64,000 nt of DNA from a bacterium (GTDB lineage: Bacteria > Babelota > Babeliae > Babelales > GCA-2401785), in NCBI GenBank assembly GCA_023249975.1, contig JAHFBP010000008.1, positions 6,011 to 70,010 of the forward strand. The letters run 5' to 3'. Shown piece after piece: positions 41,328 through 45,759 of this stretch. A program made the translations under genes and the position numbers. Position 1 is the stretch's first letter; every line of letters begins with the position of its first letter. The notes under the pieces are model-generated. The model did no database searches, had not been told where the DNA came from, and saw only the letters and a list, made by a program, of their open reading frames with translations.

Positions 41328-42579
41328 CTATTCAACCTTCGAAACAAGTTTAGTTGATTTGAGCAACGCACGAATCTGCTGGATTTCAACTGTTTCGCCA
41401 TTCTGAACTTGTTGTGCCAAGTCTCGAGCCTGATCGCAAGTTGATTCTGGCAAATCTGCACCATTTGCGATTCGGTTGAGCGCTGCAATTACTCCAGCTC
41501 GTTTCTCTTTTGGAATATTGCCACTTTCATCAATACCCAAAAGATCTTCTATCAACCGTTCTTGAACTTTATTTTTGCGATATTTGTGAGCTGCTGCAAT
41601 CACAGCTCCCGTTCCGATGACCACACCTGTTCCAATTGCAGCCTTTTTGGCAGTACTCATCGGTTGTTGCCCAGAAAGCACATGTGCTGGTGAAGCTTCT
41701 GGTTGTGATTGTTCATCACTATAACCAAAAAGTTTACGAATTCTCGTCTTTATGCGACCAAAAAATCCTACATTAACAGGTGTGACTGAAGTTGATGCCA
41801 CCGGGATTTCTTCCGTCCCCTGGAATGTTTGACGTAATTTCGGTTGCTGGTGTTCCGTTCGAGCAAATTTCAATACATTAATCGTAACATTTTTGGGGAT
41901 TGAAGCTGTATGCGCGGCCAACGTTTCTTCCGTGCCTTGTAATATATGTTCAATATCATCATAAAAATCCATGGTGATTGTGTCATCGGGATAACGAGCC
42001 GCCAAAGCTTTTGCCTGAAAAAGAAGGATCTCCGTTTTGTGATTCTCGCTGATAAAACCTGTATACAATAAATCATCACGAAACACACATGGCTGATTCA
42101 TTCCAAAATCTTTGAATTTTTGTGGAAGTTTTTTATAGTTTTCAACACAATACCCATTCTTTTTACTCTGGGCATTCATGTACTCTATATAACCAGCTTG
42201 CCGATTTGAGCCAACCGTAATTATCAACTCATCCGCATTGTTTGTGCGATCTTTTATGTTGTTTAATAATAATGGAGCCGATACTTGATCAGTCTCAAAC
42301 AACTTGAGCTGCTGCTCTGCGGGAAAAAACATATAAACATATCTGTCGGGGTCTTTTCCAAGAGCTTCTGCCATTGCTTGTTTACGCTCATCTTCATTGG
42401 TTATTTTATTCGCTGCAACTATATCTTCAAAAAACAGACAATCGGCACAGCCGTCATAATCAAGAGCTAAAACGCTGATATTTTTGGCAGACAGACAGAC
42501 AGACAGACAGACAGACAGACAGACAGACAGACAGACAGACAGACAGCAAAGTATACGGACGAAAGTATTTTTTTATCAC
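41328..42579 (-). CDS. Putative phase-variable secreted HAD-fold hydrolase with the shared C-terminal module (out of frame in this sequence)
   Basis: GGGAG RBS and GTG at 42579; the 41328 frame extends upstream through VLALDYDGC (HAD motif I) into the repeat; DFYDD acidic motif; frames differ by 1 nt. Confidence 0.75.
42488..42546 (-). repeat. Tetranucleotide microsatellite, (CAGA)14+CAG on the plus strand
   Basis: 59-bp perfect repeat read directly from the sequence. Confidence 0.97.
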
Positions 42580-42622
42580 GAATCGCTCCCTTGTTTTTAA
42601 ACATAGTTTCATCACCCGCAAC

Positions 42623-42704
42623 AGATTGCTACGCAAAATCAGCCAGTTCATGTATTCTTCCAATATGTGCTTAAGGCGCCGCGATTATCAATACATGGAG
42701 TTTT
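42623..42704 (+). promoter_or_regulatory. Conserved upstream block also found before 45852 (45763-45840) and before 18612 (minus strand, 18689-18615)
   Basis: gctacgcaa...gcc...tgtattct...tatgYgct...cgcc...ttaYcaata in all three. Confidence 0.65.
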
Positions 42705-43925
42705 TTGATGGAACCCAAAAATTATCTTCACAGAAATTATGAAGCCCGCCTCAAGGATGTTGCGACACGGTGGCCTGTTGTTACAATTCTTGGACCACGA
42801 CAATCTGGAAAAACAACCCTGGCTCAAGAAGCATTTCCCAATCATGCCTATTTTTCACTTGAAAGACCAAAAACACGTAAAATGATCTGTGAGGATATCG
42901 AAGATTTTTTACTGCGAGATCATAATGCTCCGGGTATTATTATTGATGAATTTCAGCTCGAACCTGAAATTCTGTCATATCTGCAGGTAATCGTTGATGA
43001 ATATCGAATCAAACGAGGAGATCGTAGACCTGGTTATTTTATTTTGACAGGATCCCACAACTTTTTGATGAATCAATATATTACTCAATCTCTTGCAGGC
43101 CGCGCGTATATTTTCCATATGCTGCCATTTTCTCTCAAAGAACTGTCTTTCAATCAGTTATTGACCAATAACTTGGATGAGGCCATATTTAATGGTGGTT
43201 ATGCAGATATCGTCTGTAAATATATTCAACCCGAAGAATTTTATGCTAACTACGTTAATACCTATCTCGAGCGCGACGTCCGGCAATTAGATAAACTTGT
43301 TGAACTCAACACTTTTAGAAAATTTATGGGATTATGTGCAATTCGAACTGGCCAACTTTTGAATATCAATGCCCTGGCTAATGACTGCAAAATTACCGAA
43401 AAACAAGCTCACGAATGGCTTACTATTTTATCCGCCAGCTATATCATTGTTTTACTGTCACCCTATCACAAAAACTATGGCAAAACTCTGGTAAAATCAC
43501 CAAAATTGTATTTTTGTGACACAGGGCTTGCATGTAGCCTTTTGGGTATCAAATCTGCCGAAGAACTGAGCTCTCATGATTTGCGTGGTAATCTTTTTGA
43601 AACTCTAATTATTTCAGAATTTTACAAAAAATTTTACACAATAGGTGGGCTAACTCACTATATTATGCATTTTTGGCGTGACACTGAAGGCCACGAATTA
43701 GACTGCCTCCTTGCCTATGGGTACAATAAGCTTGTTCCTGTGGAAATCAAATCAAGCGACAAAGTAAGTCCTGATTTTTTCAAGGGACTGCACTACTGGT
43801 GCGATCAGGAAGAAGTTGATTATACCACGGGCTACCTCATTTACGGCGGAACCGAAAATCAAAGCCAAGCCCGTGGCCATATCGTAAGTTGGCAAAATGC
43901 AGCTGATATTATTCAGCCTCAATAG
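42705..43925 (+). CDS. AAA_14 ATPase with DUF4143 domain
   Basis: GPRQSGKT, IIDEFQ, PKLYFCDTG; closely similar to 17401-18612. Confidence 0.9.
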   Translation: MMEPKNYLHRNYEARLKDVATRWPVVTILGPRQSGKTTLAQEAFPNHAYFSLERPKTRKMICEDIEDFLLRDHNAPGIIIDEFQLEPEILSYLQVIVDEYRIKRGDRRPGYFILTGSHNFLMNQYITQSLAGRAYIFHMLPFSLKELSFNQLLTNNLDEAIFNGGYADIVCKYIQPEEFYANYVNTYLERDVRQLDKLVELNTFRKFMGLCAIRTGQLLNINALANDCKITEKQAHEWLTILSASYIIVLLSPYHKNYGKTLVKSPKLYFCDTGLACSLLGIKSAEELSSHDLRGNLFETLIISEFYKKFYTIGGLTHYIMHFWRDTEGHELDCLLAYGYNKLVPVEIKSSDKVSPDFFKGLHYWCDQEEVDYTTGYLIYGGTENQSQARGHIVSWQNAADIIQPQ

Positions 43926-45759
43926 CCTCTGGTGCAATCTCCTGAACTTTTGATTCATCTGTCTGTGCCAAACCCACAGACTTGAGCAAATTGCGAATCT
44001 GCTGGATTTCAACTGTTTCGCCATTCTGAACTTGTTGTGCCAAGTCTCGAGCCTGATCGCGAGTTGCGTCTGGCAAATCTACATCATCAGCAATGCGGTT
44101 GAGAGCGGCAACAACTTCTGTTCGTTTCTCTTTTGGAATGTTACCACTTTCATCAATTCCCAAAAGATCTTCTATCAACCGTTCTTGTGCTTTATTTTTG
44201 CGATATTTGTGTGCTGCTGCAATCACAGCTCCCGTTCCGATGACCACACCTGTTCCAATTGCAGCCTTTTTGGCAGTACTCATCGGTGGTTGCTCAGAAA
44301 CTTCATCTACTGGTAAAGCTTCTGGTTGTTCTGTTTCATCACTATAACCAAAAAGTTTACGAATTCTCGTCTTCATGCGACCAAAAAAACTCATTCCGGC
44401 TGCTGAAGACCCCTGTGATGAGCTTTGTTGTACAGCTTGGCCGTATGTAACGTTACCTGGTATAAATTTCATCTCAACAAGTTCATTTACGATATCTCCA
44501 ATAATCAGATCGTTACTACTACACATGGTACGAATCTGATTATTAAGTCCTTCTGCCGCCTGATAGCATGGCAAAGATGCATAAGGAATCTTATCCGTTT
44601 TTCGGGTCGCTCCCCCAACACTTTCGAAACTATCAGTAATATCATGGAATCGTAAATTAACTCCTGCAAGATCTGCTGCTATCATTTGCAAAAGAATCAT
44701 CAGCACGGGGTTATTATTAAAAGCTCCACATCCGAGTAGCCCCGTCTCAATTAATACCCCCTTGTCATCATCTGTCACATGTTTTGCAAGCTTAAATCCT
44801 GAATATATAAGATGTAAAAGATGCAAAATTTCTTCATACTTATATGCATCGAATGAACCAATAATACTGCCATCACCAAAGTCATAATTTCCATTACCAA
44901 GGGGTTTTTTACTACCACGACTCGGATCTGAATAGTGCCTGCGAACAGCCAGCGAGATAGTGTTGCAATTTTTCTGAAACTGCTCATTTAATTTTATCCT
45001 ATGGCGGGGAAAAGCTTGATAAATATCGATAAGTCCTGTGATCACCAATGGATTGACATCAAGGGAATTCCTATTGCGAAAGTGACATTCGCCCAGCCCC
45101 AACATCATAGGTTTTTTGTAGACTATTTGTTCTTCTTGAACCCATCCGCCAGAAAGATACCCCCCACCATAATTTCTGTTGGCAAACACCATGGTATAAA
45201 GATCTGTATTTGTAGAATCTGGATTTTCACCGGTTTGGTATCTTTGATCTCTAGAAAATTCAGATTCGGTTTTTTTTCCAAATTCAGAAATTTTCATTTT
45301 CGCAAATTTATCATTGGCAGATTGGTTCAAATTATTTTGTAATCCGTAAAGTGTTCCTGGTTGGACTTCCTGGAAAGTTTGATAGATCCTCTGATCCTGT
45401 TTCCAATCTTGTTGTATTTGATTCCACAGCGCAATTTTCTTTGGATCTATTAATTTTTCAAATTTGGACTTATAGCTCCAAATATTTCCTTCTACAAACC
45501 TCTGCTGTGCACATCCCAAAAGTCTATCATTATCAGGCATTTTAGCGTAAAAATACTCAGTTCTATCAAGAGATTCTTCTTCGAGTCTGTCAAGCCCTTG
45601 GGTAAGATAGCTCTCTTTATCAGGAACCTTTCTGTTGGAGCCTGAACCAGAGGCTTGAGAAGCTGAAAGCGAACTACCTGCAAAAGTAAGAAAAAAAGAA
45701 AGACAGGCAGACAGCAGAACATAAGTCCGATTTTTTTTGAACACAACTTCCTCACTCAC
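43909..45759 (-). CDS. Secreted poly(ADP-ribose) glycohydrolase-like protein with the shared C-terminal module
   Basis: FANRNYGGGYLSGGWVQEE (GGG-x7-QEE) and TGLLGCGAFNNN motifs; signal peptide; C-terminal ~135 aa nearly identical to the 41328 ORF. Confidence 0.82.
   Translation of the reverse strand: MSEEVVFKKNRTYVLLSACLSFFLTFAGSSLSASQASGSGSNRKVPDKESYLTQGLDRLEEESLDRTEYFYAKMPDNDRLLGCAQQRFVEGNIWSYKSKFEKLIDPKKIALWNQIQQDWKQDQRIYQTFQEVQPGTLYGLQNNLNQSANDKFAKMKISEFGKKTESEFSRDQRYQTGENPDSTNTDLYTMVFANRNYGGGYLSGGWVQEEQIVYKKPMMLGLGECHFRNRNSLDVNPLVITGLIDIYQAFPRHRIKLNEQFQKNCNTISLAVRRHYSDPSRGSKKPLGNGNYDFGDGSIIGSFDAYKYEEILHLLHLIYSGFKLAKHVTDDDKGVLIETGLLGCGAFNNNPVLMILLQMIAADLAGVNLRFHDITDSFESVGGATRKTDKIPYASLPCYQAAEGLNNQIRTMCSSNDLIIGDIVNELVEMKFIPGNVTYGQAVQQSSSQGSSAAGMSFFGRMKTRIRKLFGYSDETEQPEALPVDEVSEQPPMSTAKKAAIGTGVVIGTGAVIAAAHKYRKNKAQERLIEDLLGIDESGNIPKEKRTEVVAALNRIADDVDLPDATRDQARDLAQQVQNGETVEIQQIRNLLKSVGLAQTDESKVQEIAPEAIEAE

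Follow-up and report, generated by a model that had tools for sequence, protein, structure and literature searches.

The locus at positions 41328-45759 of the DNA analysed here (the window, 64,000 nucleotides of contig JAHFBP010000008.1, assembly GCA_023249975.1) raises the question of why two neighbouring genes with signal-peptide-like starts and unrelated N-terminal heads, one of PARG type and one HAD-like, end in almost the same C-terminal tail, and of what such a tail would do. A preliminary description of this DNA had treated the tail as a single constant module. The analysis presented here divides it instead into two parts of different distribution, namely a predicted helical bundle that is private to four genes of the window, and a short helix-plus-basic element which is widespread, can also precede a payload and may act as a membrane anchor.

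A hidden Markov model (HMM) built from the four tails identified exactly four of the 11,640 six-frame open reading frames (ORFs) of the genome, all within the window, with E-values of 7e-68 to 2e-52 that are inflated by the same four sequences having been the training set; the next-best match in the genome was at E 0.008. Pairwise phmmer comparisons between the distant tails, which are independent of the HMM, gave E-values of 7.5e-19 to 1.9e-6. The last ~73 amino acids of the tails share 35-45% identity, rising to 82% for the twin pair formed by the two genes of the locus. At the DNA level, the twin tails (copy 1, 41356-41765, and copy 2, 43979-44388, both on the minus strand) are 90.2% identical over 410 bp without a gap, with a dN/dS of 0.44, and the heads of the four genes are unrelated to each other (best cross match E 0.56). 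The earlier observations of four genes with a common C-terminal module, of near identity over ~410 bp in two of them and of unrelated N-termini are thus borne out. Signal peptides were assigned throughout by eye and with a crude hydrophobicity proxy, which half of all genes pass.

The PARG gene (43909-45759, minus strand) is intact, with a probable start at GTG 45744 giving a product of 611 amino acids, the same call as in database record P0004. Its head, noted as PARG-like in the preliminary description, matches PF05028 (PARG_cat_C) at E 2.7e-13 and 50.4 bits, the Pfam cut-off being 26.3. The canonical PARG loop has the pattern GGG-x6-8-QEE. Alignment to solved PARG chains places an intact catalytic loop GGG-x7-QEE at 45130-45168 (minus strand), the only such motif in any long ORF of the genome, and a GCGAF motif also aligns with the solved enzymes. 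From these motifs, which it has in common with canonical PARG macrodomains, the head is assigned to the canonical PARG type, although it differs from them in having no close relative and in being combined with a signal peptide and the tail. No relative of the protein was found at E≤0.001 among 3,934 candidates, nor in metagenome contigs. A public contig (44344-46000), from a sequencing run that may be the source sample, spans the junction of head and tail with 0 differences, and both twin tails occur as separate public contigs, where only the assembled versions of the tail were seen; because of this, the fusion of the PARG head to the tail is not an assembly chimera. None of the sequencing runs listed as carrying the sequence was an RNA run.

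The second gene of the locus (41328-42604, minus strand) had been described as one open frame at 41328-42579, a reading that must be given up. A perfect tetranucleotide repeat, (CAGA)x14.8, occupies 42488-42546 in the region coding for the signal peptide, and neither GTG 42579 nor the ATG at 42604, with which the signal-peptide-like start begins, is in frame with the HAD-like head (41787-42485, minus strand) and tail copy 1. This tract is the only repeat of period 2-6 in the genome with at least 16 bases and at least 5 copies and has the usual look of a slipped-strand switch, and for these reasons it is a likely candidate for an on/off switch of the HAD gene.

HAD enzymes are defined by motif I (DxD), motif II (S/T), motif III (K) and motif IV (DD). 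The corresponding motifs of this head are DYDGC, TVGSNRQ, K and FYDD, and they point to an effector family of Legionella type. A profile of three HAD heads found 14 proteins, one of which is named as a Dot/Icm type IV secretion system (T4SS) effector of Legionella massiliensis; as a lead only, the Atlas cluster for the head is labelled 'Dot/Icm T4SS effector family' (0.91). In the alignment, from which the weakest match (P0018) and a truncated own record (P0005) were left out, DxDG, GSxRQ, K and DD are invariant, with D9, D11, S93, K150, D176 and D177 present in 14/14 sequences. The model of the head is a confident alpha/beta fold (pLDDT 83) with the DxD at the end of strand 1. The head profile matched 0/260 other Babelota genomes; a scan of genome contigs gave no match to the head, and neither did Pfam or a sequence search of the PDB.

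One relative of the HAD head ends in a DrrA_P4M lipid-binding domain (E 1.8e-32), and three others have long hydrophobic C-terminal segments as read by eye; it therefore appears from the sequences that this head has repeatedly been joined to membrane-binding C-termini. Within the source genome, an intact paralog (C16:2080-3123, L011; 36% identity, E 3e-40) has a signal peptide and a different C-terminus without the tail. As the head has this tail-less paralog with another ending, head swapping is shown within the source genome, and the proposal that enzymatic heads recombine onto the tail is supported in part, with unrelated heads on one tail and the HAD head on other C-termini both here and in other bacteria. 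The C-terminal stretch of the C16 paralog is basic and resembles a nuclear localisation signal.

The other two genes of the family lie on the plus strand. The gene described earlier as 14379-15436 does carry the tail, but it is not a single frame: a signal-peptide-bearing 5′ ORF (14379-14765), whose head belongs to no known family, overlaps a 3′ ORF in a different frame (14753-15436) with tail copy 3. The frame break must fall in 14672-14765, an interval that is only partly covered by a 151-nucleotide, depth-2 public contig from a different sample, which aligns gap-free to 14590-14740. Two of the four tail genes are thus interrupted as assembled. The fourth gene (15436-17394) is intact, with an atypical signal-like start, a charged helical head that contains an internal duplication of ~150 bp, and tail copy 4. 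The heads of both genes gave no match in Pfam, NCBIfam or PHROGs. A degenerate internal copy of the bundle in the head of the fourth gene was considered and rejected, as 27/300 and 155/1000 shuffles scored equally well.

As seen in copy 2, the tail consists of a basic amphipathic segment, an acidic linker, a Gly/Ala helix with a basic patch, and the bundle. The last is an orphan domain of ~70 amino acids (43972-44184, minus strand) which is net acidic, has no conserved His and is predicted to be helical, the AlphaFold2 model being that of the twin copy. This model, made from copy 1 with the four-sequence alignment, has helices at residues 55-77, 87-101, 108-122 and 129-144, with a pLDDT of 66-85 in the bundle and 55.8 for the model as a whole. 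The acidity (7-10 Lys/Arg against 11-15 Asp/Glu) is one of composition, not of a mapped surface. As the preliminary description had supposed, the tail is not a named domain: no match passed the cut-offs of Pfam, NCBIfam or PHROGs, Foldseek gave none at E≤0.001, and Atlas gave no usable feature match and structure rows of TM≤0.55. The best structural match of the bundle is an HPt (CheA P1) domain (Z 9.7, rmsd 3.0 over 94 residues, 12% identity). An HPt identity was rejected, since a Z of 9.7 is generic, below the ~13 that the tool itself sets as the level of meaning for helical bundles, and no His is invariant (0-1 His per domain).

The bundle was then sought beyond the source genome (G000) in a phylum set of 261 Babelota genomes, including the source genome and none other of its genus. 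It was found in 0/260 other genomes, the sole match (G239, E 0.004) spanning the helix part only, and no bundle was present in 800 kb of genes from G024 and G045. Among 1.84 billion protein representatives, the full tail was found in the source genome's own four proteins only, and there was none in viral or metagenome contigs. The HMM search of the genome and of related genomes that had been proposed earlier therefore yields no tail outside these four genes, and the idea of an effector system that is polymorphic across genomes is not supported. The bundle is, at the level of prediction, a four-helix domain of ~70 amino acids restricted to these four proteins, and on these genomes the family appears to be an innovation of one genome. 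The literature searched gave no account of the tail, nor of the element in Babelota; supplements, for example the Babela expanded-family tables, could list it.

The element has a very different distribution. It comprises an uncharged Gly/Ala span of 15-19 residues with Lys/Arg flanks and an aromatic residue near the end of the span; in the PARG gene, the span is 19 residues long (44209-44265, minus strand), with basic residues on both sides and a net charge of +4 across the next 12 residues. In the four tails, hydrophobicity (KD19) is 1.03-1.62, with a net charge of +4 to +5 in the 12 residues after the span; the median KD19 for 288 windows of polytopic proteins is 1.99. The earlier reading of the ORFs at 8378 and 10166 as having the helix and basic patch without the final domain proved correct: both are signal-like proteins with the element and no bundle (8378-8926 and 10166-11335, plus strand). 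A rule-based scan of the source genome found the element in 23/399 signal-like genes and 9/429 other genes (shuffles 5-7), and 400-kb samples of two other families gave 6/163 against 1/172 and 7/156 against 1/164 (shuffles 0-4).

A profile from 15 elements of the source genome matched 55/260 other genomes at E≤0.05 and 0/5 genomes outside the phylum; 19 of the 29 best loci outside the source genome had signal-like starts (with the best start chosen), and one was a fragment. A 35-row profile, for which 8 of these 29 loci were dropped and 4 other rows added, matched 118/260 genomes at E≤0.01, that is, 94 of the 236 that had given no training row. The enrichment in Babelota relative to outside genomes is suggestive. 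In the source genome, 18 ORFs have the element at 10 bits or more, mostly training rows or their paralogs. It precedes ankyrin, LRR or PP2C domains in some proteins and stands at the extreme C-terminus of others; it is also found alone in proteins of ~110-150 amino acids, and 20 of the 23 carriers scanned have no Pfam family. A match between two of the element profiles (A2 and A7) was set aside as evidence, the same rows being common to both.

Two observations concern the surroundings of the element. As seen by eye, basic-aromatic amphipathic segments of the F/W..R..R.R..F type recur near it or at the C-termini of secreted-type proteins (41721-41765, 44344-44388, and the C-termini of ORFs 8856 and 10166 and of a family on contig C9), and are possibly a second membrane-binding signal. 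The tandem family at C9:70381-77453 (L012) and C13:82-729 (L013) comprises at least 7 signal-peptide proteins of ~210-290 amino acids, in two clusters at contig ends, whose near-identical N-terminal part ends in the element and is followed by fully variable helical C-terminal parts, so that it is the mirror image of the window family, with a constant front and a variable back.

Comparison with known systems helps to place the tail. In polymorphic toxin systems such as CDI, Rhs, MafB and LXG, variable payloads are carried on a constant module. The present family resembles them in having different payloads on a constant part with near-identical DNA, but the polarity is reversed, with a variable N-terminal head and a constant C-terminal tail; immunity genes, orphan cassettes or a cassette arrangement were not seen among the neighbours, which are AAA-DUF4143, TolC-family and other secreted-type genes, and only one genome is involved. 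On these sequence features, the four genes appear to be a lineage-specific shuffled family rather than a cross-genome polymorphic system. The Dot/Icm effectors of Legionella have the head family with DxDG, GSxRQ, K and DD, one relative ending in P4M; in the window gene, a signal peptide precedes this head and the new tail forms the C-terminus. The PARG head can also be set beside Lpg0081/MavL, reportedly ADP-ribosylhydrolase effectors of Legionella.

By analogy, the nearest functional parallel is the four-helix-bundle membrane localisation domain (4HBM) of MARTX, PMT and the large clostridial toxins, a portable localisation module that consists of a helical bundle of ~70-80 amino acids and is found on unrelated catalytic domains; the tail would be portable in the same manner as 4HBM or P4M (PMC3417404). 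The differences are considerable. No such Pfam family was found at E≤0.1 in any of the four proteins; 4HBM needs a surface of basic and hydrophobic loops, whereas here the bundle is net acidic and the basic-hydrophobic element lies outside it; and the hosts of 4HBM are large toxins, whereas these are Sec-type single proteins. No 4HBM chain was among the 50 structural matches listed for the bundle, which excludes nothing.

A physical likeness also exists between the element and Tom20-type signal or tail anchors and DUF883 proteins (ElaB/YqjD), which have a short, moderately hydrophobic helix with a net positive charge just after it (PMC2192658 and PMC5525287). Moderate hydrophobicity with a positive C-flank is the targeting rule given for Tom20 (PMC2192658), and the tail anchors of DUF883 proteins from E. 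coli insert into the mitochondria of yeast (PMC5525287). The present element differs in being internal, behind a cleavable-looking signal peptide, and in having no significant sequence match to these anchors, so that only the physical pattern is alike; DUF883_C matched 1/35 element members at E 0.019.

The source genome (1.09 Mb, 20 contigs, 92.8% complete) was placed in the Babelota (Dependentiae/TM6), Ca. Babeliales, because its DnaJ shares 57% identity with the one of a Ca. Babeliales genome, against 36-48% for the other 79 loci listed. Described members of the phylum live as parasites inside protists, have Sec and type II secretion as their only secretion routes and carry signal peptides on many proteins (PMC4378268, PMC4776705, PMC6561590), and the cultured Chromulinavorax wraps itself in, or remodels, host mitochondria (PMC6561590). 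Two secretin genes were found in the source genome. Searches of it for the FHIPEP and VirB4 families gave no match, while the positive controls did match; a search for DotA also gave none, and was uninformative as its control matched nowhere.

On this background, the most likely reading, to which we give about even odds, is that the four genes encode Sec-exported effectors whose tail would fasten the head to a host membrane, the host itself probably being a protist. The signal peptide would lead the protein into the Sec pathway, followed by exit through a secretin (type II-like) route or in vesicles. Since the KD19 of 1.03-1.62 lies below the 1.99 of polytopic windows, the Gly/Ala helix would be too weakly hydrophobic to halt in the bacterial inner membrane and would pass through it. 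In the host, it would insert post-translationally in the manner of a signal or tail anchor, held by the flanking Lys/Arg and the aromatic residue, most likely in the mitochondrial outer membrane or the vacuole; the former is possibly the target, by analogy with the anchors above. The PARG head would then strip ADP-ribose, and the HAD head phosphate, from host substrates in the vicinity, with the acidic bundle as a putative protein-binding or oligomerisation domain and the CAGA repeat switching the HAD gene on and off.

A number of results weigh against host-membrane anchoring. The head precedes the helix, so that a true membrane-spanning insertion would place head and bundle on opposite sides, and a hairpin or surface (non-spanning) insertion must therefore be assumed. 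Positive charge after the helix is equally the ordinary positive-inside rule of bacteria, and the hydrophobicity and charge statistics of the element (33/35 selected elements are positive in 5 residues) come from rows selected for these very properties. The helix region ahead of the bundle has a pLDDT below 50 in the model. Three of the 29 best loci of the 15-example profile are cysteine-synthase-like false matches, and the 35-row profile matched 1/5 genomes outside Babelota at E≤0.01, the control being small. Searches of the PDB with the element profiles gave an inovirus coat protein as the best match (E 0.044), and no Tom20 or Tom70 chain was among the matches listed. As to the head, Foldseek found nothing at E≤0.001 and only weak matches, at E 0.005-0.05, to CARF, periplasmic-binding and HAD structures, and the label 'HAD-like', for what is likely a phosphatase, consequently rests on the motifs. 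Finally, half of the family is interrupted.

The alternative that survives best is that the helix acts as a normal stop-transfer anchor within the envelope of the bacterium itself, with the head in the periplasm, at the surface or on vesicles and the bundle in the bacterial cytoplasm, possibly bound there to a partner in secretion or a chaperone. The order of signal peptide, head, helix and basic patch is the textbook type I topology, the twins have a 19-residue uncharged span with a KD19 of 1.62, and the weak likeness to the inovirus coat protein and to the glycine-zipper anchors of DUF883 points the same way. However, two of the four spans are just 15 residues long with a KD19 near 1.0, the summed insertion energy is positive in all four, and PARG would have no evident periplasmic substrate. 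Insertion on the host side is favoured because an inner-membrane anchor would leave the ankyrin, LRR and PP2C domains that follow the element in other proteins in the bacterial cytoplasm. We regard the envelope reading as rather doubtful.

The history of the locus bears on a further alternative. Its order is tail copy 1, HAD head, leader 1, AAA/DUF4143 gene, tail copy 2, PARG head, leader 2, TolC-family gene. Leader 1 (42591-42695) is 77% identical to leader 2 (45731-45835), which lies in front of the PARG gene, and is also homologous to DNA upstream of an AAA-DUF4143 gene on contig C9. Because the leaders are 77% and the tails 90.2% identical and the heads are unrelated, the locus reads as a leader-head-tail unit that was duplicated in tandem and had at least one of its heads exchanged. 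The signal end of the HAD gene is 79% identical to that of the C16 paralog over 47 bp, and owing to this resemblance it is probable that the HAD head brought some of its own signal along. PF05028 was found in one of the 260 other genomes, in a protein that scores lower, has a signal peptide and possesses neither the tail nor the GGG loop; this PARG-like protein (G003:C2; L143:859-1977), from a genome of the same taxonomic family, keeps an EE-like position and is possibly inactive or a binder. The rarity in the phylum of both heads fits their acquisition by horizontal transfer. The family would thus have arisen by local duplication of leader-plus-tail units, with the middle replaced by horizontally acquired heads.

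From such a history, it could be argued that the bundle is a mere passenger, a gene end copied by local tandem duplication while heads were replaced, in a family that is now decaying. The four copies share a single contig, where they form two clusters next to AAA-DUF4143 genes, two of the genes are interrupted, no homolog exists in the 260 phylum genomes or the 1.84 billion representatives, and the twin dN/dS of 0.44 indicates weak constraint. We nevertheless consider this improbable, as the distant copies hold 35-45% amino acid identity and an invariant core where DNA similarity is reduced to patches of 15-47 bases, and as the twins resemble each other more in their tails (90%) than in their leaders (77%). 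Least probable is a self-translocation module whose small-residue helices would oligomerise into a pore that takes the head through the vacuole membrane in the manner of AB-type toxins: the Gly/Ala repeats have small-xxx-small spacing, and with no type III/IV machine found in the source genome a way across the vacuole is needed, but the tail has a single short helix and lacks a hydrophobic hairpin, its bundle is acidic and looks soluble, matches to translocation domains do not rise above the generic level, and the element stands alone in proteins of ~110-150 amino acids. Anchoring fits the tail anatomy better.

Among the neighbouring genes, the AAA_14 + DUF4143 ATPase gene between the duplicated units (42705-43925, plus strand) is one of nine paralogs, and another (17401-18612, minus strand) is convergent with the 15436 gene. 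Three of the nine are within ~110 bases of an element-bearing gene and the other six at 7-22 kb; one such gene (11438-12622) is convergent with the 10166 gene. No mechanism supports a causal link between them and the family. On contig C17 (49470-53535), three tandem AAA-DUF4143 genes lie between secreted-type proteins of 1765 and 1277 amino acids. Genes for TolC, an HlyD-type protein, a MacB/FtsX permease and an ABC ATPase (45852-51109) adjoin the PARG gene, with TolC behind leader 2.

The cluster at 14379-18612 is flanked by two paralogs of ~500 amino acids (12685-14217 and 18699-20192) with an aromatic last residue as in outer-membrane beta-barrels; the one scanned had no Pfam or NCBIfam match. 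Three tandem signal-peptide paralogs of ~700 amino acids (21444-28575) are repetitive and beta-rich, the one scanned having no Pfam match. Elsewhere in the window are a tandem pair of M16 peptidases with 75% DNA identity (33881-39456), two SOD paralogs around a MerR regulator and two WD40 beta-propeller proteins (54046-56445 and 58930-63906), and an imperfect palindromic repeat of ~150 bp, REP/MITE-like, at 9906-10110, 490-546, 958-1161 and 2141-2232; genome-wide, 42 separate loci match its section 9935-10075.

The locus shows the birth of effectors in progress, in which a head of Legionella type and a canonical PARG have been brought under Sec secretion and joined to a common tail. The bundle, limited to one genome, matters less, and the anchor-like element found across the phylum is the more valuable lead. 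As a bolder extension, drawn by analogy and one that we hold to be rather unlikely, the Babelota may share, across the phylum, an undescribed targeting grammar of signal peptide, basic lead-in, short Gly/Ala helix and aromatic-basic patch, in imitation of a signal anchor of the mitochondrial outer membrane. Such a grammar would allow parasites restricted to Sec and type II secretion to place ankyrin, LRR, phosphatase and PARG payloads on host mitochondria, and the four genes would be a phase-variable set of cassettes that evolved locally from this anchor and a new helical domain. The element bears on how Babelota deliver and position their numerous signal-peptide effectors with no type III/IV secretion, and a short portable anchor recurring across the phylum would be a way to sort hundreds of orphan secreted proteins.

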